NCBI GenBank assembly: GCA_041645325.1
Contig: JBAZQI010000003.1
Coordinates: forward strand, 1 to 56,581
Reading direction: 5' to 3'
DNA: 56,581 bases
Source of the DNA: an archaeon
GTDB lineage: Archaea; Iainarchaeota; Iainarchaeia; Iainarchaeales; GCA-2688035
Part shown: positions 2,722-33,670 of the stretch, one piece after another
Position numbering within the stretch: the first letter of the stretch is position 1
How the letters are laid out: each line of letters begins with the position of its first letter
Program-made: the position numbers and the translations under genes
Notes under the pieces: model-generated
What the model was told of the DNA's origin: nothing
The model's database searches: none
Seen by the model: the letters and a program-made list of their open reading frames with translations, nothing else

Positions 2722-2725
2722 TCAA

Positions 2726-2923
2726 TCACTTCCTTTGCAATCTCTTCAGCTTCCACGGTGGAAGCGCAGCATCTTCTATGCCGCCGCCACCTTTCCCGTA
2801 AATGTCATTTGCGTTTTTGACATTGCCTTTTCTTTTGTCGCCGGCAGGCACGCCAATCGTTGCATGCGGCCAACCCATTTGCCTTCTTGCCCTGTCTTCC
2901 CTTCCTTTTGGCCTTCTTCTCAT
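2726..2923 (-). CDS. Hypothetical small basic protein (the first ATG gives 65 aa; the track ORF extends to a TTG at 2953)
   Basis: The stop lies 4 nt before the apt start, and a TATA-like ATTTAAAT box sits ~40 nt upstream of the ATG at 2923. There is no recognisable family (MRRRPKGREDRARRQMGWPHATIGVPAGDKRKG...). Confidence 0.25.
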   Translation of the reverse strand: MRRRPKGREDRARRQMGWPHATIGVPAGDKRKGNVKNANDIYGKGGGGIEDAALPPWKLKRLQRK

Positions 2924-2941
2924 GCAACCACTGCGGCAATC

Positions 2942-2976
2942 AAAATTATCCAAAAAAAGTAATTTAAATGGGTTGC
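2942..2976 (-). repeat. Promoter-like direct repeat, copy 1 (GCAACCCATTTAAATT + ~19 nt), downstream flank of the hicAB cassette
   Basis: The minus strand reads GCAACCCATTTAAATTACTTTTTTTGGATAAT. The first 16 nt are identical and the rest similar to 3549-3583. It contains the palindromic TATA-like ATTTAAAT. Confidence 0.5.
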
Positions 2977-3085
2977 TTGGATTGCCTGCTTATGCATTTG
3001 AATTGTGAAGGATTGGAAACAGCCACAAAGCAATTGCCGATTTGCTTTTTTGGCATAATTGAAGAAAATTCAAAATCAGTTTGTT

Positions 3086-3310
3086 CTACAGCAATTTTGC
3101 CAGTTCTTCCCTTGAGATTGCCAGGTCTTGCTTGAGTATTTTGTTCAATAGCCCTGGCGGCAATGGCTTGTTTGAATGAAATGGAATTGTCAGCTTTCTC
3201 CCGTCTGAATGTGAAAGCGTCTTATGCGAGCCCTTCTGCCGCACTTCCACAAAGCCAAGCTTAAGCGCAATTTTAATCAGGTCTTTGGGGTAAACAACCG
3301 GAAGCTTCAT
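3086..3310 (-). CDS. hicA: HicA-family mRNA interferase toxin
   Basis: LIKIALKLGFVEVRQKGSHKTLSHSDGRKLTIPFHSNKPLPPGLLNKILKQ is the YcfA/HicA fold signature (G-S-H). It is 74 aa and overlaps hicB by 4 nt. Confidence 0.85.
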   Translation of the reverse strand: MKLPVVYPKDLIKIALKLGFVEVRQKGSHKTLSHSDGRKLTIPFHSNKPLPPGLLNKILKQDLAISREELAKLL

Positions 3311-3546
3311 GAATATGCAACCGCTACTTTTACCATTCCCACTACTTTATTTTCCGCTCTCTTTTGCCCTTTTTCTTTCAAAGAACTCAAATGCAGTTCA
3401 ATTGCTTCCTTTATGCTCTTCAGCAAGCTTTCAATAGTGTCAGCGTAAGAATAGCACCCCGGCAGCGAAGGAACAGACGCATAAACCTGCCCTGTTTTGC
3501 CGTCCCTTTCAATTACAACATCAAAATCCATAAAACACTTCACCAA
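3307..3546 (-). CDS. hicB: HicB-family antitoxin (UPF0150-like). The real start is probably the ATG at 3531
   Basis: MDFDVVIERDGKTGQVYASVPSLPGCYSYADTIESLLKSIKEAIELHL matches the HicB N-terminal domain pattern. The track start at 3546 is TTG. Confidence 0.8.
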   Translation of the reverse strand: MVKCFMDFDVVIERDGKTGQVYASVPSLPGCYSYADTIESLLKSIKEAIELHLSSLKEKGQKRAENKVVGMVKVAVAYS

Positions 3547-3548
3547 GA

Positions 3549-3583
3549 GATATTATGCTGAAAAAGGAATTTAAATGGGTTGC
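3549..3583 (-). repeat. Promoter-like direct repeat, copy 2, upstream flank of the hicAB cassette
   Basis: The minus strand reads GCAACCCATTTAAATTCCTTTTTCAGCATAAT. The TATA-like box lies ~40 nt upstream of the hicB ATG (3531). Confidence 0.5.
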
Positions 3584-3621
3584 CTGTTTTAAAAATTTTG
3601 CAAAAAATCGGCAAAATTGAT

Positions 3622-4113
3622 TTAAGCGCCTTTTTTCTTGGGCCGCTTCTTTGGCTCTTTTCCCGGCCTTCTGCCTTTTTTTCCGCCAATCTTTCTTGAA
3701 AGCCTTTTGCGTGATTTAACCGCTTTTGCAGTTCCGTACCTTACAGGGCCTGTTCCGCGCGCACTAGTGTCGCCGGAACCGCTTTTCTTGCTCAAGCGCT
3801 TTAGCTGAAGCTTTTCACCCACAATTCTCTTGCCAACCTGGCCTTCCCTATAATCAACTCTTTCCGGAACCCAAATTCTGCCGCCCCATCTACTAGCTTC
3901 ATAATGTGCCGGAATTACAGTATTCATTTCTCCCAAAATTGGTTCTGTTTTTATGCCTCTGCCTTTTACAGTATACCGGCTTGCGCTTTTTGGCGTTACG
4001 CCTCTTGCCCTTCCGCCAAGAGCGTCAAAAACGCTTGGTCCCCAAGCAGCTTTTCTTGCTGCCCTTCTTTGTTTAACAGTGTTTCCGGGAAAGATTCTTT
4101 TGTATCTTCTCAT
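3622..4113 (-). CDS. Hypothetical, extremely basic protein (163 aa) with an R/K-rich, disordered-looking tail
   Basis: This is the only long ORF across the stretch. It has its own CATTTAAAC box ~25 nt upstream. There is no recognisable domain (…RIWVPERVDYREGQVGKRIVGEKLQL…KKGRRPGKEPKKRPKKKGA). Confidence 0.55.
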   Translation of the reverse strand: MRRYKRIFPGNTVKQRRAARKAAWGPSVFDALGGRARGVTPKSASRYTVKGRGIKTEPILGEMNTVIPAHYEASRWGGRIWVPERVDYREGQVGKRIVGEKLQLKRLSKKSGSGDTSARGTGPVRYGTAKAVKSRKRLSRKIGGKKGRRPGKEPKKRPKKKGA

Positions 4114-4200
4114 TTTTTCCGCCCTGAATTGTTTAAATGTATTGTAATATTCTATTTGAACTGATTAATTAATCTTCCTGCGAAGCTTGTTGCTGAGAGC

Positions 4201-4869
4201 TTATTTGAATATTTCTTCCATTACTATTTCTTTTCCCCTGGCGCCTTTGAGGATTCTTTTGGCAAAAACACGGTTGGCTTTTGCCGGATTCTCTTTCCAC
4301 ATTTCATAAAACTCTTGCACGACTTCAACAATTTCTTCTGCTGTTGGTTTTTTGCTTTTGCAGGCATAAGGCAAAGCAAGCAAGCCTGGGCCCATTTCGT
4401 CGTACATTTCCCTGAGCTTTGGAGGCAATCTCCTGTAGAATGGCCTGAAAACAGGCCTCATGCCAACAGGCTTTAATTTTCCGGCTGCAACCTGGTGCAA
4501 TTGCAATAGCTCGTCCAGATGCAATTTCCTGACCCACCTGCCGAATGCAGTATAATGCCCTGTTGGTTCCCTTCCATCTGTTTCATAATCGGCGTGAGCG
4601 CCCCTTTTCATTGTCCTGAATTTTGTGATAACAATTGCGTTTGGCTTTCCTTTTGGAAATGTTTCGCTTGTTGGTCCGCGCTTGCCGATTCTCACTTGCT
4701 TGTGCAAAATCCAGCCGTCTTTGAAAGCTGTGTTTAAGCCTTGCTGTTTTGGGCTTACATATCCTCTTGCAATTCGCCTGGCAAGGCTTTCTTTCCTGTT
4801 TTCCGGCTTTGGACCAAGCCCTTGGCGGACAGCGCGCCTCAGCCTCCTCGCAATGCTTTGCCTCGCCAT
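4201..4869 (-). CDS. Divergent small phosphoglycosyltransferase-like protein (bacterial sugar transferase / PglC-WbaP catalytic domain) lacking the N-terminal membrane helix
   Basis: VITKFRTM...AFGRWVRKLHLDELLQLHQVAAGKLKPVGMRPV parallels the family motifs KFRTM and LDELPQ-x-NVL-x-G-x-MS-x-VGPRP, and the D-E dyad is retained. The N-terminus is arginine-rich (MARQSIARRLRRAVRQ) with no hydrophobic segment. Confidence 0.7.
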   Translation of the reverse strand: MARQSIARRLRRAVRQGLGPKPENRKESLARRIARGYVSPKQQGLNTAFKDGWILHKQVRIGKRGPTSETFPKGKPNAIVITKFRTMKRGAHADYETDGREPTGHYTAFGRWVRKLHLDELLQLHQVAAGKLKPVGMRPVFRPFYRRLPPKLREMYDEMGPGLLALPYACKSKKPTAEEIVEVVQEFYEMWKENPAKANRVFAKRILKGARGKEIVMEEIFK

Positions 4870-4925
4870 TCTTCTTTACAGCCCCGGTGTTTCCCTTTTT
4901 TCAATCCACCCAACGATTTTTTTTT

Positions 4926-5669
4926 TCATTCGTGTGTGGTGAACCCTTTCCATTCTTTGATTGCCTTTTCGTACCTTTCAAATGTGTCTGTCTGGAGGAA
5001 CTGCCTTTTCTTCATTTCAACGCCGAAAAGCTTTCCTTCTTCGGCCAGCCTTGGGAACACTTCTTTTTCAATGCTGCAATTTTTCCCTCTTGGAATGCAA
5101 TCAAAAATTTTTGGGTCCAGAATGTAGGCGCCGGCGCTGATGAGCTTGAACCCTTCTTCCTCATCAGGCGGCTTTTCGCTGAACTCGGAAATGCGTTCGC
5201 CCTTGAGCTTCACCAGGCCGCCTGCCTTTGAGTACGCAACCGTTGAAAGCGCAAGCGTTGCAACCGCCCCGTTTTTTTCATGCGCCTTGTCCATTGCCGC
5301 AAAATCAATGTCCTTCAATTCATCGCCGTTCATCATAATGAACTTTTTTTCTCCCTTCAAATGCGCTTCGGCAATCTTAAGCGCGCCCGCAGTGCCCATG
5401 TATTCCTTTTCAACATTGTAATGCAGGAGCACGCCAAGCTTTTTCCCATTGCCGAATTTTTCCTCTATCTGCTCGTGCTTGAAGCCCACGGCAAAAGTAA
5501 TGTCCTGGACCCCGAATCTTTTTGCCAGTTCAATGTTCCACTGCAAACAAGGCTTTCCCTGCACAGGAAGAATAAGCTTGCTCAATTCAAGGGTAATGGG
5601 CCTTAAGCGGGTGCCAGGGCCGCCTGCAAGAATAAAAGCCTTTTTTATCCCCAAATCCCTTTCAGCCAT
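4926..5669 (-). CDS. Sugar-1-phosphate nucleotidyltransferase (mannose-1-P guanylyl / glucose-1-P thymidylyl-transferase-like)
   Basis: KAFILAGGPGTRLRPITLELSKLILPV is the G-x-G-T-R-L signature, and ...EKEYMGTAGALK is also present. The track ORF runs to 5741. I prefer the ATG at 5669 (MAERDLGIKKAF...), which is preceded by AAGGGG and an AT-rich box. Confidence 0.85.
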   Translation of the reverse strand: MAERDLGIKKAFILAGGPGTRLRPITLELSKLILPVQGKPCLQWNIELAKRFGVQDITFAVGFKHEQIEEKFGNGKKLGVLLHYNVEKEYMGTAGALKIAEAHLKGEKKFIMMNGDELKDIDFAAMDKAHEKNGAVATLALSTVAYSKAGGLVKLKGERISEFSEKPPDEEEGFKLISAGAYILDPKIFDCIPRGKNCSIEKEVFPRLAEEGKLFGVEMKKRQFLQTDTFERYEKAIKEWKGFTTHE

Positions 5670-5787
5670 AGGGACAAATAGCCCCTTAATGTAATTAAAG
5701 TTTATCTTTTTTTTATTAGGGCCATGCAATGCCTGCACCAAATGCTTTAAATTTAGTTAATGCGGTAATTGTTTCCGGTGTTTTGCA

Positions 5788-7598: not shown

Positions 7599-7671
7599 CA
7601 TAGGTACATCCCTCAAATAAATGCCTTTTTTAACAGTTCTTGTTTTTTGTCTTTCAGGGTAATGAAACTTG

Positions 7672-10359
7672 ATGAAGATTGCCGTTGTTGGAACCGGCTA
7701 TGTCGGGCTTGTTGCAGGCACCTGCTTTGCCGATATGGGCCATGAGGTCATTTGCGTTGACATTGAAGAGGAAAAAATAAGGATGCTTAACGAAGGCAAG
7801 GTGCCGATTTTCGAGCCTGGGCTTGAGGATTTGATTAAGAAAAACGCCAGGGCAAAAAGGCTTTCCTTTACCACTGATTTTGACGATGCTGTGAAAAAAA
7901 GCGACATTATCTTCATTGCTGTTGGAACGCCGCCGAAGCCGAATGGCGACGCAGATTTGAGCTATATTGAGAATGTGGCGAGGGGAATTGCGGCTGCCGC
8001 AAAAAAGCCCAAGATTGTTGTTGAAAAAAGCACTGTTCCTGTTCAGACCTGTGAGAGGATAATCCAGGTGCTGGACTGCAATGACGGTGATGGCAATGGC
8101 AAGTGCGTGAAGCACGTTGTGGTAAGCAACCCCGAGTTTTTAAGGGAAGGGAGCGCGGTAAAGGATTTTTTGTTCCCTGACCGGATTGTGATTGGCACAG
8201 AGGACGAGCACGCGCGCAAGGCAATGGAGGAATTGTATGCTCCTTTGAAGGCAAAAATCCTTTTTACCGACATCAAGAGCGCGGAAATAATAAAGCACGC
8301 AAGCAACAGTTTTCTTGCAGCGAAAATCAGCTTCATCAACGCGGTTGCCAGCATCTGCGAAAAAACAGGCGCGGACATCGGAAGGGTCGCCGAAGGCATG
8401 GGCTTGGACAAGCGCATTGGGGCAAGCTTCCTGAATGCGGGCATTGGTTATGGCGGCTTCTGCTTTTCCGGCAAAGAGCTTGTTTTTGCCGGGAATCCTT
8501 CTGTTCAGCCAACTGCTTTTGAAGATGCTTTCAATGGCTTTGACAGCAAAAAGGATTTCAGGTGCCTTGTTTTTAAGAATGGCGCTGTGGTTGAAGCGCC
8601 TTTGGTTGGCTTTTCCAAGAGGCACTTTAAAGGCGAAATGCTTTCGATTTCTACTGCAATGGGGCGAAGCATAGAAGTAACTGCAGAGCACCCTTTGCCT
8701 GTTGTGAAGGGCGGCAAAATGTTTGTGAAGGAAGCTAAAAGTGTTGAAATCGGAGACGAGCTGCCTTTCATTGCAAGCCTGCCTGAGAAGCCTGTTGAAA
8801 GAATTGATTTAATTGATGCTATTTCAGGGCACCCTGGGTTTTTTTCTTCGATTAAACTCAGGCCAAAAAGCAAAAAACTCATTGATTTGAAGGGCAGAAT
8901 TGCCCCTTTCCTGAAAGTTTCCCCCATGGTGAAGCACGATTATTTCAGAAAGAACTATTTGCGGCTTAAGGATTTCCTGCAATTGGAAGCAGCTGGTGCA
9001 ATGCCTTTGCCAAGGGAAGAATTCATGCTTTTCACTGCAAAGGGCAATACGACTTATTTTCCGGCGATCCTAAAACTTGATGAAAGCTTTTGGCGGTTCG
9101 TTGGCTACTATCTGGCTGAAGGCGATATTTTTTATGAAAAGTGCGAAAGGGGCACAAGAAGCAGAATAAAAATAACATTTAATTCAAAAGAGAGGGAATA
9201 CATTGAAGATGTTTCCGGAATTTTGTCTTCCCTTGGAATAAAGTTTTTGCTTGGCAACTATGGGAAAACCGCAAGGTTCACTGTCAGCTCAAAGGTCTTT
9301 TGCTTTCTTTTGGATTCTGTTTTGAAATGCGGCAGGACAAGCTATGACGCAAATGTTCCTTCAATGGCTTTCCTGCAAAGCAAAGAAAACAAAAAAAGCC
9401 TGCTGCAGGGGCTGTTCAGGGGAGATGCTTACCCTTATTTCCACAAGCATGCAGAAGCCATTACAATAGAGTATGGCACTGTGAGCGAAAAGCTTGCAAA
9501 TTCAGTCATTGTTTTGCTGCAGTCTCTTGGCGTAGTGGCAAGCCGCAAAACACAGTTGATGAAAAAATCAACGGTTCCGGCGCATATTGTAAGGGTTTCC
9601 TGCAATAGCCAGGTAAGGAAGCTGTGCTTTTTTGACTCAGGCACGAACAAAAAAATTATTGCAAAGCTGTCTAAAAGCAGGAAAAAAATAAGGCCGATCG
9701 GGTTTAGGGAATACAAAGGCTTTTTTGGCTTAAAGGTCAAAAAAATCGAAAAGCGATTGGTGGAAAAAGATGTTTACTCTTTGCAGTTGCTTAAAGAACC
9801 GCACTTGTTTGTTTCCTCATACGGCTTGATTGCACACAACTGTTTTCCAAAGGACGTTGAGGCATTCATCAGGATTTCTGAAAAAAACGGCTATGATTTC
9901 AAGCTTTTGAAGGAAGTGCAGGCAGTCAACAATTTCCAGAAGCAAAACTTTGTGAAAAGGGTTGAGGATGCCCTTTGGAATCTGAATGGCAAGACAATCG
10001 GCGTGCTTGGGCTTGCGTTCAAGCCAAATACAGACGACATGCGCTTTGCGCCGAGCATTGACATAATCAACGCTTTGCTCAAGGAGGGTGCAAAGGTAAA
10101 GGCGTTTGACCCTGAGGCAATGGAAAGGGCAAAGGCAATTCTTGGCGGCAAAATAGAGTACTGCGAGGACATGTATGCCGTTGCACAGGGCGCTGACGCG
10201 CTTTTGTTCCTCACGGAATGGGATTGCTTCAAAAAGATTGATTTGGCAAAAGCCAAAAAGCTCCTGAAGCAGCCGTTTTTATTCGACGGCAGGAACATGT
10301 TTGACCCAAAGGAAATGCGTTCCCTTGGTTTCAAGTACGAAAGCATTGGAAGGTTGTAA
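7672..10359 (+). CDS. ugd: UDP-glucose 6-dehydrogenase interrupted by a 460-aa intein (mature extein ~435 aa)
   Basis: The N-terminal Rossmann motif MKIAVVGTGYVGLV and EFLREGSAVKDF are present. GIGYGGF | intein | CFPKDVEAF reconstitutes the catalytic GG-x-CFPKD motif. The C-terminal part has GLAFKPNTDDMR. The ATG at 7672 lies one codon inside the track TTG start. Confidence 0.92.
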   Translation: MKIAVVGTGYVGLVAGTCFADMGHEVICVDIEEEKIRMLNEGKVPIFEPGLEDLIKKNARAKRLSFTTDFDDAVKKSDIIFIAVGTPPKPNGDADLSYIENVARGIAAAAKKPKIVVEKSTVPVQTCERIIQVLDCNDGDGNGKCVKHVVVSNPEFLREGSAVKDFLFPDRIVIGTEDEHARKAMEELYAPLKAKILFTDIKSAEIIKHASNSFLAAKISFINAVASICEKTGADIGRVAEGMGLDKRIGASFLNAGIGYGGFCFSGKELVFAGNPSVQPTAFEDAFNGFDSKKDFRCLVFKNGAVVEAPLVGFSKRHFKGEMLSISTAMGRSIEVTAEHPLPVVKGGKMFVKEAKSVEIGDELPFIASLPEKPVERIDLIDAISGHPGFFSSIKLRPKSKKLIDLKGRIAPFLKVSPMVKHDYFRKNYLRLKDFLQLEAAGAMPLPREEFMLFTAKGNTTYFPAILKLDESFWRFVGYYLAEGDIFYEKCERGTRSRIKITFNSKEREYIEDVSGILSSLGIKFLLGNYGKTARFTVSSKVFCFLLDSVLKCGRTSYDANVPSMAFLQSKENKKSLLQGLFRGDAYPYFHKHAEAITIEYGTVSEKLANSVIVLLQSLGVVASRKTQLMKKSTVPAHIVRVSCNSQVRKLCFFDSGTNKKIIAKLSKSRKKIRPIGFREYKGFFGLKVKKIEKRLVEKDVYSLQLLKEPHLFVSSYGLIAHNCFPKDVEAFIRISEKNGYDFKLLKEVQAVNNFQKQNFVKRVEDALWNLNGKTIGVLGLAFKPNTDDMRFAPSIDIINALLKEGAKVKAFDPEAMERAKAILGGKIEYCEDMYAVAQGADALLFLTEWDCFKKIDLAKAKKLLKQPFLFDGRNMFDPKEMRSLGFKYESIGRL
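8461..9840 (+). mobile_element. Full-size intein with a LAGLIDADG homing-endonuclease domain, inserted immediately before the catalytic Cys of ugd
   Basis: It starts with Cys (CFSGKELVF), has block B VTAEHPL, two LAGLIDADG-type motifs (VGYYLAEGD and LLQGLFRGDAY), and ends ...GLIAHN followed by the +1 Cys (9841-9843). Its 1380 nt are in frame. Confidence 0.88.
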
Positions 10360-15095: not shown

Positions 15096-16796
15096 TTATC
15101 TTCCTTTTTGGCTCTTTTCCAGGTAGTCAAGGAACTCGCTTACCCTGTGCACTTCCAGAAGGTTTGTTTTCTTGACGCCGCTGTTGAAAACAGAGCCTGT
15201 AATCACAACCACTGACCTTTTTCCGATATATCCCTTCTGCATTGCCTTGAGTATTGCCTCTTTTTTATGTTCATTGGAGATATCATCAAGGCCTTTGCTT
15301 ATCAAAAGCGGGCAAACACCCCAAAGGATGTTAAGCTGCCTGAAAATTTTCTCGTTGGAAGTTGCGGCAATTATTTTTGGCAAAGGCATGTGGCTTGCAA
15401 TCATTCTTGCAGAGTATCCCCCGGATGTTAGGACAATGGTGGCATCAATCTCAAGCATTTTCTCCAGCTCGTAAATCGCTTTACCAATGGCATTGGTCAG
15501 ATTAACATCCCTCAAAGAGCCGTTCTCAATGGGCTTGATGTCGCCCTCCATTGCCTTGATTACTTTTGACATTGTTTCAACCGCTTCCAGCGGATATCTT
15601 CCAATTGCCGTTTCAGCCGAAAGCATTAGGCAGGAAGCGCCGTCCAAGACAGCGTTTGCAATGTCAGAAATTTCCGCCTTTGAAGCCTGATTGCTTTCAA
15701 TCATTGATTCGAGCATGTGGGTAGCGATTATCACCGGCTTTCCAACCCTATTGCATTCAAGAACGATTTTTTTCTGCATTTTTGGAACAAGCTCATAGGC
15801 TGTTTCGCTGCCCAAGTCGCCCCTGTCAATCATTATGCCATAAGCTTCCTTTATTATTTCCTTGTAGTTTGCTATTGCTTCTTTTGTTTCAATCTTTGCA
15901 ATAACTTTTGTCTTTGCGCTTATCACTTGGTTCAGGTTGCCATAGCCAAGCACCTCGTTCAAGGATTTAACATCCTCGGCTGTCCTGACAAAAGAATAGC
16001 CAACGAATTCCAAGTCGTTTTTTGCAGCAAACTCAGCCCACTTTCTGTCAACAGCTGAAATGCCACCATGCCCGAACTTTGTATCCGGGCAGTTGACGCC
16101 CTTGTTTTTTGCAATTGTGCCCTTTCCCGCAGACCTGCAAACAATTTCATTTTGGGAAACCTTTTCCGCAACAAGGCACAGCTTTCCGTCATCAATGAAG
16201 ATCTTGTCCCCTTTTTTGACAGAAGCAAAGAACTGCTCGTTTGGCAGGGGAATTCCTTTGCCTGGGCTTTCGGCGCTTTTCACAAATACGACTTTTTGCC
16301 CTTTTGCTACGTTGACTGGCGCCTCAATGGCAGTAAGCCTGATTTTTGGGCCTGGAATGTCCAAAAGAATCGGAACCTCCTTTGAAACAGACCTTATCAG
16401 GTTAACGAGCTTTAGTGCTGAGTCCTCAGTGCAGTGGGAAGCATTAAGCCGTGCGGCATCCATTCCTTTCTCAATAAGTCTTGCAATGGTTTTCCTGTCA
16501 GCCGAAGCCGGCCCGATTGTGCACAGTATCTTGGTTTTTTTGAAGCTTGAATCGGCAATTGTTTTCTCAAGTTCAGCCAGGGCAGAAAGCGCTTTGGGGC
16601 TGTTTTTAAAACAGTAAAGCAACTGGTTTTCATGGCTGGCTGATCCGACCAGCTTTTGCTTTTCAAATTCCTTCAGTATCTTGAAGGCGCTGCCCACGCT
16701 TATGCCAAGAAGCCTTGCTATCTGGTTGACGTTAAAGCTCTTGTCTGCGTTTTCAGAAAGGAGTTCAAGAACCCTAAAAGCATTTCTCCCGGCCAT
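15096..16796 (-). CDS. pyk: Pyruvate kinase with an extra ~85-aa N-terminal winged-helix-turn-helix domain
   Basis: Residues 1-~60 (AFRVLELLSENADKSFNVNQIARLLGISVGSAFKILKEFEKQKLV) look like a MarR/TrmB/IclR-type wHTH. PK motifs follow: TKILCTIGPAS, RLNASHC, DIPGPKIR, AKIETKEA, MIDRGDLGSE, THMLESM and LMLSAETAIGRYP. The stop lies 3 nt from the sat start. Confidence 0.88.
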   Translation of the reverse strand: MAGRNAFRVLELLSENADKSFNVNQIARLLGISVGSAFKILKEFEKQKLVGSASHENQLLYCFKNSPKALSALAELEKTIADSSFKKTKILCTIGPASADRKTIARLIEKGMDAARLNASHCTEDSALKLVNLIRSVSKEVPILLDIPGPKIRLTAIEAPVNVAKGQKVVFVKSAESPGKGIPLPNEQFFASVKKGDKIFIDDGKLCLVAEKVSQNEIVCRSAGKGTIAKNKGVNCPDTKFGHGGISAVDRKWAEFAAKNDLEFVGYSFVRTAEDVKSLNEVLGYGNLNQVISAKTKVIAKIETKEAIANYKEIIKEAYGIMIDRGDLGSETAYELVPKMQKKIVLECNRVGKPVIIATHMLESMIESNQASKAEISDIANAVLDGASCLMLSAETAIGRYPLEAVETMSKVIKAMEGDIKPIENGSLRDVNLTNAIGKAIYELEKMLEIDATIVLTSGGYSARMIASHMPLPKIIAATSNEKIFRQLNILWGVCPLLISKGLDDISNEHKKEAILKAMQKGYIGKRSVVVITGSVFNSGVKKTNLLEVHRVSEFLDYLEKSQKGR

Positions 16797-31908: not shown

Positions 31909-32043
31909 ATTTAACCAATTCTGCCTTTTAACTCTTTTAAAACCGTTATTTTTTGATTAACGTACTATACTATTATGGTTTTCTTTAAATACCCTTTCGG
32001 ATTAACTCTAGTAAATGCCATCCGGTTTTTTTCAGGGCTTTTT

Positions 32044-32087
32044 CCGAAGGAAGTTTTTCCCAAGGCTTCGAGTGCCCTGCAGGGTAC
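32044..32087 (+). repeat. Copy C of the box+hairpin element, in a divergent promoter region
   Basis: CCGAAGGAAGTTTTTCCCAAGGCTT is followed by an imperfect hairpin around the palindrome CCCTGCAGGG. Confidence 0.45.
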
Positions 32088-32113
32088 GAGGCAAGAAAAG
32101 CTTTTGCTTTTCT

Positions 32114-33670
32114 ATGTTTTCCATCGGGAAAAAAGGCTTTTTTGGGCAAAGCCTTGAGGCAAAAATATTTGCTGCCATAATAGTTTTGGCTCTTTTTGCA
32201 AGGATTTTTGTGCTTTTTGCATTGCCTGACACTGCCCTGACAGACAGCATGTACCATTTGTCCATTACCAAATACATCGTGGAAAATCACGCCCTGCCTT
32301 TTTATGGAATACCGGAAGCAGGCGTGGTTGGCATGCCTGTTCCGTTGTTCCATATTTTAACAGCCGGCTTTTTCGTACTTTTCCAGTTGCCTGTTACCCT
32401 TGCCTTTGCAAAAGTGTTTCCGGCCATTTTCTCTTTCCTGCAGCTGCTGCTTTCTTTTTTGATTCTCAGGAAATTGTTTCCAAAAAACTGGGTTTTTGGT
32501 TTTGCGTTTGTGGCAATCAGCCCTTTATTGGTTATCTTTGGCGCGGTCAATTATCTGGAAACCCTTGCATCGGTAACAGTGCTGTTATGCTTTTTTGTCT
32601 ACTGGTGCTATGTTGAAACAGGCCGCAAAATTTTCCTTGTGGCAATGCCGCTTGCGCTCATGCTTCTTGCAATTTCCAAGGAAAATGCCACTGTTTTGGT
32701 TCCTGTGTTTTTTGTTTTTTTCCTGTATGAAATAATCAGGAAAATGCCTTCAAAAGGCTTGGGGCGCATTGCCTGGACTGCCGGCTTTGCAATTGCCTCT
32801 GTCCTTCTTTGCTCTGCATGGTTTGCCGTGAACTTTGCGGCAACAGGCAGCCTTGGCTCGGCTTTTGCCGCCGGCGCAGGCAGCATGGCTGCTGTACTGC
32901 AGGTTCCTGTCGGCTTTGAATCAATTTTCTTTTACCCGCTTAATTTCAATTCGGGCTTTTGGTTTTTCCTGCCGCAGGGCTTTGAATCAGCGCCTTTTGG
33001 AATTTCACAGGAACTGGCTTTTGCGGCCTTTACTTTGGTGAGTTTTCCTGTCCTGATGCTGGTTTTTTTTGGCCTTGCAAAAGGCCTTCTTGCCGGGAAA
33101 GAGCCGCGTTTCAAGGCTTTTCTTTTGCTTGGACTTTGCCTTGCCGTATCACTTGGAGTATTATTTTTGAGGGGCCAAAGGTTTGTGCATGGCAGGATGC
33201 TTTTGCCTGTGCTGCCCCTGCTAGGCATCGCCTTTTCCTGCGCGTTTGCGGAAATCAAAAGCGCCAATTGGAAAAGATTTTTGGCAGCCGTCTTCATGCT
33301 TTTTGCATTGTACTCTGCGGCCTTTTCAAGCCTTTATGCAATGCATTTCAACGAGGATTACAACAGCCATGCCCCCTTATACCAATTTGTCAAAGAGCTG
33401 CCGGAAGGCAGCATTGTGGCAATCCACGCAAACAAGGTAAGGCAGATTGAGTCCATTTCAGGCAAAGAAACTGTTCCCTACCCTAAATTTGCCGGGCTTG
33501 AGCCAAACCAGCTTTATTCAAAGCTTGTTGAGCTGAATGTTACGCATTTGGCGGAAACCTGCTACAAAAACCCCTGGGACAAGGTCATTTTGGATGAGCT
33601 TGAAAGCCAGGGCCTTATAGCAATTGTTTTTTCCGACAGCTGCTCAACTTTATATGACGTGAAAAGGTGA
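32114..33670 (+). CDS. Polytopic GT-C-like glycosyltransferase (ArnT/PMT, GT39/GT83-like) with a C-terminal soluble domain
   Basis: It has roughly 12 predicted TM helices, a first loop LPDTALTDSMYHLSITKYIVENHALPFYG, and a ~110-aa hydrophilic C-terminus. I prefer the ATG at 32114; the track ORF begins at 32015, inside the repeat element. Confidence 0.62.
   Translation: MFSIGKKGFFGQSLEAKIFAAIIVLALFARIFVLFALPDTALTDSMYHLSITKYIVENHALPFYGIPEAGVVGMPVPLFHILTAGFFVLFQLPVTLAFAKVFPAIFSFLQLLLSFLILRKLFPKNWVFGFAFVAISPLLVIFGAVNYLETLASVTVLLCFFVYWCYVETGRKIFLVAMPLALMLLAISKENATVLVPVFFVFFLYEIIRKMPSKGLGRIAWTAGFAIASVLLCSAWFAVNFAATGSLGSAFAAGAGSMAAVLQVPVGFESIFFYPLNFNSGFWFFLPQGFESAPFGISQELAFAAFTLVSFPVLMLVFFGLAKGLLAGKEPRFKAFLLLGLCLAVSLGVLFLRGQRFVHGRMLLPVLPLLGIAFSCAFAEIKSANWKRFLAAVFMLFALYSAAFSSLYAMHFNEDYNSHAPLYQFVKELPEGSIVAIHANKVRQIESISGKETVPYPKFAGLEPNQLYSKLVELNVTHLAETCYKNPWDKVILDELESQGLIAIVFSDSCSTLYDVKR

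Follow-up and report, generated by a model that had tools for sequence, protein, structure and literature searches.

A phosphoglycosyl transferase-like protein without the membrane helix at the edge of an archaeal glycan island

The contig JBAZQI010000003.1, from an archaeon of the Iainarchaeales, was analysed over positions 1 to 56,581 (56,581 nucleotides, hereafter the window). Near one end, on the minus strand, lies a gene (4201..4869) whose 222-residue product, with an isoelectric point (pI) of 10.5, resembles the monotopic phosphoglycosyl transferases (monoPGTs) and has no hydrophobic segment. Residues 1–47 (MARQSIARRLRRAVRQG...; 4729..4869) form an Arg-rich N-terminal extension that is specific to a subclade, while residues 48–215 (4225..4728) make up the catalytic core, which is the unit conserved throughout the helix-less family. 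The core contains a KFRTM motif at residues 83–87 (4609..4623) and Asp119–Glu120 (4510..4515), the latter equivalent to the catalytic dyad Asp93–Glu94 of PglC. A sugar-1-phosphate nucleotidyltransferase gene (4926..5741) is located directly upstream and a hyper-basic orphan open reading frame (ORF; 3622..4113) downstream, both also on the minus strand.

The product matches the Pfam family PF02397 (Bac_transf) with an E of 4.5e-14 and 52.8 bits, far above the gathering cutoff of 27, which together with the KFRTM motif bears out the catalytic domain claimed in an earlier note on this DNA. The match extends over protein residues 52–183 and profile positions 33–153 of 179. Because it begins only at position 33, profile positions 1–32, the part that describes the re-entrant membrane helix (RMH), are left without a counterpart. 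The protein has a single domain and, at 222 residues, falls within the 150–250 residues that define the small monoPGT (SmPGT) family. NCBIfam models gave only sub-threshold partial matches, to C-terminal domains of the WbaP, WcaJ and EpsB types. The highest 19-residue Kyte–Doolittle mean is 0.2, whereas canonical phosphoglycosyl transferases (PGTs) from the same search reach 2.3–3.3 just before the domain, and a simple scan found no transmembrane segment. The absence of an N-terminal membrane helix, as the earlier note had it, is therefore confirmed. A hidden helix or an alternative start was considered upon re-annotation and is ruled out by the helix-less orthologues and by the gap of only 56 nt between the ATG and the end of the nucleotidyltransferase gene at 4926, which leaves no room for such a segment. 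The gap itself had been described correctly, but the Shine–Dalgarno sequence said to precede the gene is weaker than claimed, being just GGGG about 13–16 nt upstream.

A phmmer search of PDB sequences aligned the protein to Salmonella WbaP (8T53) and to Campylobacter concisus PglC (8E37/8G1N). After correction for the numbering of the PDB chain, which is offset by 4 residues, K83 corresponds to PglC Lys59, R114 to Arg88, D119–E120 to Asp93–Glu94 and R138 to Arg112. Both the Asp–Glu dyad and Arg88 are named in published work on PglC (PMC10186338; PMC10519829). The nucleotide motif PRP reads MRP in this protein, with Arg138–Pro139 kept and the first Pro replaced by Met. In a mixed alignment of 29 sequences, 13 of them helix-less and 16 canonical helix-bearing PGTs, K83, R85, R114, D119, E120, G136 and R138 are invariant, and P139 is also kept. 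Comparison of the helix-less family profile with the canonical PGT profile by hhalign gave a probability of 99.9 and an E of 1.6e-34, placing query columns 39–202 onto template columns 59–214 of 247; the only columns left unaligned were the N-terminal (RMH) ones of the canonical profile. The dyad alignment holds in all three comparisons and is not spurious. Since the hhalign alignment runs to the C-terminus, the C-terminal third, which had been described as departing from the family, is divergent in sequence yet positionally homologous to that of canonical PGTs.

Structure prediction agrees with this assignment and gives the soluble domain a PglC-like alpha/beta fold. The AlphaFold2 model, built on the family alignment, has a mean predicted local distance difference test score (pLDDT) of 80.3 and a predicted template modeling score (pTM) of 0.69; the core (residues ~52–210) is confident, with pLDDT mostly 85–98, while the N-terminal 50 residues are poorly defined. 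The only significant Foldseek matches in the PDB are PglC (8G1N/8E37; E about 5e-5, probability 1.0, template modeling score 0.47–0.59) and WbaP (8T53; E 3e-3). The moderate template modeling score to PglC is partly due to the absent helix and the floppy N-terminus. PglC (PDB 5W7L, 8E37, 8G1N), the best structural match, has in common with the window protein the PF02397 domain, the Lys of KFRTM, Arg88, Asp93–Glu94, the Arg of the PRP motif and a similar size of about 200 residues. It is bacterial rather than archaeal and possesses an RMH (residues 1–36, kinked at Ser23–Pro24), whereas the window protein carries the Arg-rich extension, MRP in place of PRP, re-modelled C-terminal helices and a non-conserved equivalent of Arg145. 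Of the solved structures, WbaP matches the family profile best by sequence (E about 3e-22); it shares the catalytic core, but its four extra transmembrane helices, regulatory domain and RMH are absent here. The ORF at 4201–4869 is with high confidence a genuine Bac_transf/monoPGT catalytic domain without the RMH. The predicted protein retains the residues with which PglC carries out its first half-reaction, those for nucleotide-sugar and Mg2+ binding and for the covalent intermediate and contains no membrane-inserting segment, and it is likely to be catalytically competent.

AlphaFold2 places two short helices, 2–15 and 25–34, in the Arg-rich residues 1–47, at low-to-moderate pLDDT. The earlier note called this region possibly amphipathic, which is weaker than claimed: the hydrophobic moment is a modest 0.32–0.39 and the mean hydrophobicity is near zero (about 0.1). 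The segment is a charged stretch with a thin hydrophobic face only. A motif, (S/P)-(I/L)-x-R-R-(I/L)-R-R-x-(V/I)-R-K-H-x-G-P-K-Q, is common to four close relatives (P0003, P0004, P0005 and P0007) and to the orthologue at the related locus L009, which argues that the segment is constrained within a narrow subclade. It is kept in about six close relatives only and is replaced in P0002, most of the family starting at the catalytic core. In the orthologue at a second related locus, L001, the Arg-rich N-terminus has been overwritten by a second copy of the opening 16 codons of APRT, the adjacent gene (MDLRTKIRTVPHFPKK); positions 1595–1642 and 2267–2314 of that locus are identical in DNA through about 48 nt from the ATG, and the resulting N-terminus is chimeric. 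The idea that the segment replaces the membrane helix thus describes what is present in this protein but does not extend to the family, for which the segment cannot be a general substitute. In the window lineage it could strengthen electrostatic binding to anionic surfaces.

A word-indexed search with the protein returned only itself and one 49%-identical relative, while an exhaustive HMMER search of 1.84 billion representatives gave 286 matches at E<=1e-3 and 24 at E<=1e-10. The best ~30 matches are short (136–285 residues, most 160–215), with a Met start a few residues before a conserved F-H-x-Q-x-R-V-G-K hairpin. Among the top 150 matches, a hydrophobic helix precedes KxR(T/S)M in 60 and is absent in 72, while 20 lack a recognisable motif or are fragments. 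The homologues are therefore themselves helix-less, rather than ordinary anchored transferases of which the window copy would be a pseudogene. A neighbour-joining tree of 135 core domains has one pure clade of 54 helix-bearing sequences; those without the helix fall into two pure clades, of 32 and 17, and some small groups. The clade of 32 includes the window protein and all Diapherotrites/ainarchaeum sequences, and that of 17 includes a Tara Oceans archaeal protein (P0159). This pattern, in a simple tree whose sampling is biased towards the query, fits old, separate helix-less lineages rather than sporadic truncation.

Conservation within the helix-less family centers on the catalytic residues. 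Across 23 aligned members (mean column identity 31%), G62, K83, R85, E120, Q123 and R138 are invariant, and R60, T86, G110, L113, R114, D119, P122, G136, Y156 and G160 are at least 90% conserved. Most members have I, V or M where the PRP motif begins with Pro, and the C-terminal helices are re-modelled around a polar/aromatic motif, F-Y-x-M-W-K-K-N. In longer helix-less proteins (290–500 residues) the Bac_transf match begins at profile position 23–39, mostly 32–36; their N-terminal domains match no Pfam family, and these fusions give no clue to the acceptor. Helix-less Bac_transf proteins of other lineages, among them 340–385-residue proteins with an unannotated N-terminal domain of ~210 residues and the Tara archaeal P0159, likewise begin their match at ~33–36, have no hydrophobic helix, and keep the catalytic residues and a related C-terminal motif. 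They differ in forming separate clades with different N-terminal appendages and are also uncharacterised. A genome-collection scan with a narrower alignment recovered four family loci and five canonical PGTs, and two metagenome scans added one further short family contig (L021), the other hits being canonical PGTs. We take the ORF at 4201–4869 to be an expressed member of an uncharacterised helix-less monoPGT clade. One protein of 3274 residues, P0008, matched query residues 94–119 in 53 separate stretches; it is repetitive and the match is probably compositional or repeat-based.

Members of the helix-less clade with taxonomic evidence are all archaeal (Diapherotrites/Iainarchaeum, DPANN). A profile search of an annotated collection found entries named 'sugar transferase' from Candidatus Diapherotrites archaeon (P0154, 169 residues; P0155, 173 residues) and from Candidatus ainarchaeum sp. 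(P0156, 176 residues). The family loci from the genome collection are labelled archaeon, Ca. ainarchaeum or uncultured archaeon, apart from L009 (JAFCCG010000002.1), which is labelled as a metagenome-assembled genome of a 'Chloroflexi bacterium'. That label is probably a binning error, because L009 is syntenic with the window, whose relatives are archaeal, and its proteins are mostly 78–85% identical to those of the window. Other family loci have archaeal contexts, with CDC48 and type-IV-pilin-like genes at L010 and L012 and with Rpb7, Spt4, S24e, S27 and an archaeal S-adenosylmethionine (SAM) synthetase at L018. In the window, a TTTAAA or TTTATA element is often found 25–45 nt upstream of the first genes of apparent operons, which fits archaeal promoters.

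Two general statements of the field are contradicted by this archaeal clade. The SmPGT family has been defined as proteins of 150–250 residues with a single PF02397 domain that are exclusively bacterial (PMC11626204), and the named relatives and genomic contexts of the helix-less clade are archaeal. The RMH, with its Ser–Pro kink, has been described as part of the minimal catalytic domain in all members of the monoPGT superfamily (PMC10519829), and the window protein has none. What emerges instead is a coherent clade of 160–220-residue proteins in which the catalytic residues are kept and the helix is gone, with related helix-less groups elsewhere. A literature search found no publication on helix-less or archaeal Bac_transf proteins.

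The gene directly upstream was correctly recognised in the earlier note as a sugar-1-phosphate nucleotidyltransferase (PF00483, E 7e-33), with a likely start at 5669. A TATA-like element is present upstream of 5669 and none occurs between the two genes. This suggests a two-gene transcript, and the genes are probably co-transcribed. Their adjacency is conserved at L009 and, with a PIN gene inserted, at L001. A very large glycan region, which covers window positions 4900–56581 and at least 10 kb beyond (L101), more than 60 kb in all, has the PGT-like gene as its last. Within the window, this island encodes, besides the nucleotidyltransferase at 4926–5741, three more of the NTP_transferase family and one CMP-sugar (CTP_transf_3) cytidylyltransferase. 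It also encodes two UDP-glucose dehydrogenases, a UXS-like epimerase, and an ATP sulfurylase and adenosine 5′-phosphosulfate (APS) kinase, the genes for 3′-phosphoadenosine 5′-phosphosulfate (PAPS). Further genes specify a CDP-alcohol phosphatidyltransferase, a carbamoyltransferase, several methyltransferases, three B12-radical-SAM enzymes, GT2 and GT4 glycosyltransferases, two Wzx-like flippases and a protein with 12 transmembrane segments and no family match. A nonulosonic-acid module comprises NeuB, a CMP-transferase, DegT, a PseB-like enzyme and a 2-epimerase. The 10 kb beyond the window adds more glycosyltransferases, a PMT_2-type GT-C enzyme and an LPG_synthase_TM protein, and GT2 and GT4 genes number at least nine over both parts.

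Polytopic PGTs of the AglH/WecA/MraY type (PF00953) convert a nucleoside diphosphate (NDP)-sugar and polyprenyl phosphate to polyprenyl-diphosphate-sugar and a nucleoside monophosphate (NMP), and are known to initiate N-glycosylation in archaea. Their fold, with 10–11 transmembrane helices, is unrelated, and they form no covalent intermediate. In the ~67 kb examined, there is neither a PF00953 (AglH/WecA-type) gene nor a second Bac_transf gene.

Encoded at one end of this >60-kb island, the PGT-like protein is most likely a phosphosugar transferase, either peripheral or soluble, that receives its substrate from the upstream nucleotidyltransferase. It would bind the NDP-sugar made by the co-transcribed enzyme, release NMP and form a phosphosugar intermediate on Asp119, in a ping-pong reaction such as that of monoPGTs, which proceeds via a covalent intermediate (PMC10519829). 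The sugar-1-phosphate would then be passed to a phosphate-bearing acceptor, for which the headgroup of dolichyl or polyprenyl phosphate at the membrane surface is our guess. As a very basic protein it could reach the membrane peripherally by electrostatics, aided in the window subclade by the Arg-rich N-terminus, and the transfer might prime a glycan of the adjacent island, with its Wzx-type flippases and GT-C enzymes. A lipid acceptor reached from the membrane surface comes close to an even call and, as the weakest step, sets the strength of the whole reading. It is favoured because the gene sits in a glycan-island setting, because flippases and GT-C enzymes need lipid-linked intermediates, and because no other PGT is encoded nearby.

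Several observations weigh against a phosphosugar transferase acting for this island. Archaea can start N-glycans with GT2 dolichyl-phosphate glycosyltransferases, so that the island has no strict need of a PGT. The more distant relatives of the gene occur alone among housekeeping genes (SAM synthetase/Memo, CDC48, GTPase, DNA ligase and APRT/MTAP), and no neighbour is shared across the helix-less clade in the contexts examined. The RMH that all described members contain shapes the undecaprenyl phosphate (UndP) site (PMC10519829). The equivalent of PglC Arg145 (in canonical proteins a G-R, seven residues after PGxTG) is not conserved; this column is Ser172 in the window protein, next to Lys171, and is variable in the helix-less clade, often with a Lys or Arg one position away. 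In PglC, R145A/Q lowers activity 100–200-fold (PMC10519829). The window copy itself is divergent. Its subclade has changed the D-P-R-x-T motif, otherwise conserved in both helix-bearing and helix-less PGT domains, to E-x-Y-x-T (TGHYT here, residues 103–107). The window protein also has Leu for Pro122 (ELPQ to ELLQ) and Gln for Asn126, and it is only 55% identical to its L009 orthologue.

Some of these observations would be accounted for if the enzyme, with its PGT fold, were soluble and its Asp-phosphosugar intermediate were resolved by an acceptor other than a lipid, for example a phosphate monoester, another nucleotide, the side chain of a protein, the end of a nucleic acid or water (NDP-sugar hydrolysis). 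Such an activity would be new for the fold and is possible, if on the unlikely side. The RMH and any hydrophobic segment are lost across the whole clade, the residue equivalent to Arg145, which contacts UndP in PglC, is not conserved (PMC10519829), the first Pro of PRP is gone from most members (PMC10519829; PMC10186338), the C-terminal helices are re-modelled, and genomic contexts are mostly housekeeping. However, neither conserved neighbours nor domain fusions suggest a candidate acceptor, the gene abuts a sugar-nucleotide/glycan island in the window and in its two closest relatives, and the very basic surface fits anionic membranes as well as nucleic acids. That the helix-less clade as a whole is a soluble PGT branch that has moved off the membrane lipid and hands sugar-1-phosphate to a protein, nucleic acid, nucleotide or small phosphate ester, as a new housekeeping activity in genome-reduced DPANN archaea, we consider unlikely. 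Either outcome would matter. If dolichyl phosphate is still used, the minimal PGT would be redefined, and the clade would offer a naturally soluble, easily purified model of a difficult membrane enzyme; if the acceptor is another one, the PGT fold would have a new reaction and DPANN archaea an unrecognised core function.

It is improbable that the window copy is impaired or decaying, whether because its subclade is drifting or because the protein has become non-enzymatic, serving in sugar-nucleotide binding or regulation. The 55% identity to the L009 orthologue contrasts with flanking genes, four of which are 78–85% identical and a fifth, for an AP_endonuc_2-family protein, 59%. The loss of the DPR motif, Pro122 and Asn126, conserved in both classes, and the overwritten N-terminus of the L001 orthologue point in the same direction, and the subclade has an 11–12-residue insertion in the hairpin before KFRTM. 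These features indicate that the PGT-like copy is evolving fast, which could reflect a changed donor specificity, common in glycan-priming enzymes, or relaxed constraint. Against decay, the ORF is intact in every relative, and K83, R85, R114, D119, E120 and R138 are kept. The replaced region has a conserved motif of its own in the subclade, E-x-Y-x-T-x-x-G, and the codon-usage score of the gene is typical of window genes.

The ORF at 3622–4113 lies 87 nt downstream on the same strand and, as had been noted, encodes an extremely basic protein (163 residues, pI 11.7, 29% K+R and 6% D+E) with no recognisable domain. It has no Pfam, NCBIfam, PHROG or PADLOC match, and the PHROG and PADLOC scans gave nothing for the PGT-like ORF or for a small Arg-rich ORF described below either. 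Among 5.8 billion clustered proteins, it has no homologue besides itself. We considered a chance ORF in purine-rich DNA and rejected it as the sole explanation: although it has no homologue, it lies in a stretch of 180 codons without a stop, a length reached by none of 2000 dinucleotide-preserving shuffles (mean 77, maximum 172). Its in-frame codon score is like that of neighbouring genes, and 25 nt before the ATG there is a TATA-like element of its own (CATTTAAAC). These features point to a gene that is probably real. A single-sequence AlphaFold2 model (pLDDT 50, pTM 0.16) is mostly without regular secondary structure and is uninformative.

A functional pair of the PGT-like protein and this hyper-basic protein, as proposed in the earlier note, is very improbable. 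The two ORFs are adjacent, on one strand and both very basic, but no homologue of the basic ORF was found, a TATA-like element of its own precedes it, and its model is of low confidence. A survey for co-occurrence found it absent from every related locus examined: at L001, L002 and L009 APRT comes next after the PGT-like gene, across spacers of 93, 147 and 125 nt, respectively, and no comparable neighbour occurs in the other contexts examined. The window spacer (2722–4200) measures 1479 nt and holds the basic ORF, a HicB/HicA pair and the small Arg-rich ORF. HicAB is flanked by a 35-nt direct repeat, whose copies at 3552–3586 and 2945–2979 (minus strand) are 86% identical and whose counterpart in L001 and L009 is the stretch with the TATA element before APRT. 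The APRT promoter region therefore seems to have been duplicated when HicAB was inserted, and the basic ORF is a further lineage-specific addition unrelated to the PGT-like gene. It is scarcely credible that the PGT-like gene is an artefact of annotation or assembly, or a pseudogene truncated from a normal membrane-anchored PGT: nothing beyond the missing helix itself speaks for it, whereas an identical gene is present on two independent assemblies, only 56 nt separate its ATG from the stop of the upstream neighbour, the upstream sequence has no helix-encoding or frameshifted helix segment, and the orthologues and about 70 representative homologues are helix-less with Met starts right before the core.

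Between APRT and the downstream promoter copy is the small Arg/Lys/Gly-rich ORF (2726–2953, minus strand; 65–75 residues, pI 10.7), a putative coding sequence that matches no family.

Further observations were made elsewhere in the window. Between a GT2 gene and a Wzx-like flippase gene, positions 32015–33670 (plus strand) encode the 551-residue protein with ~12 predicted transmembrane segments and no Pfam match, which may be a GT-C-type glycosyltransferase or a polymerase. One UDP-glucose 6-dehydrogenase gene (7669–10359, plus strand) is interrupted by an intein of ~450 residues with LAGLIDADG-type matches; in the L009 orthologue, which is 82–84% identical, there is no intein and the extein parts are contiguous. 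The pyruvate kinase encoded at 15096–16796 (minus strand) carries an N-terminal MarR/IclR-type helix-turn-helix (residues 4–50), an unusual fusion.

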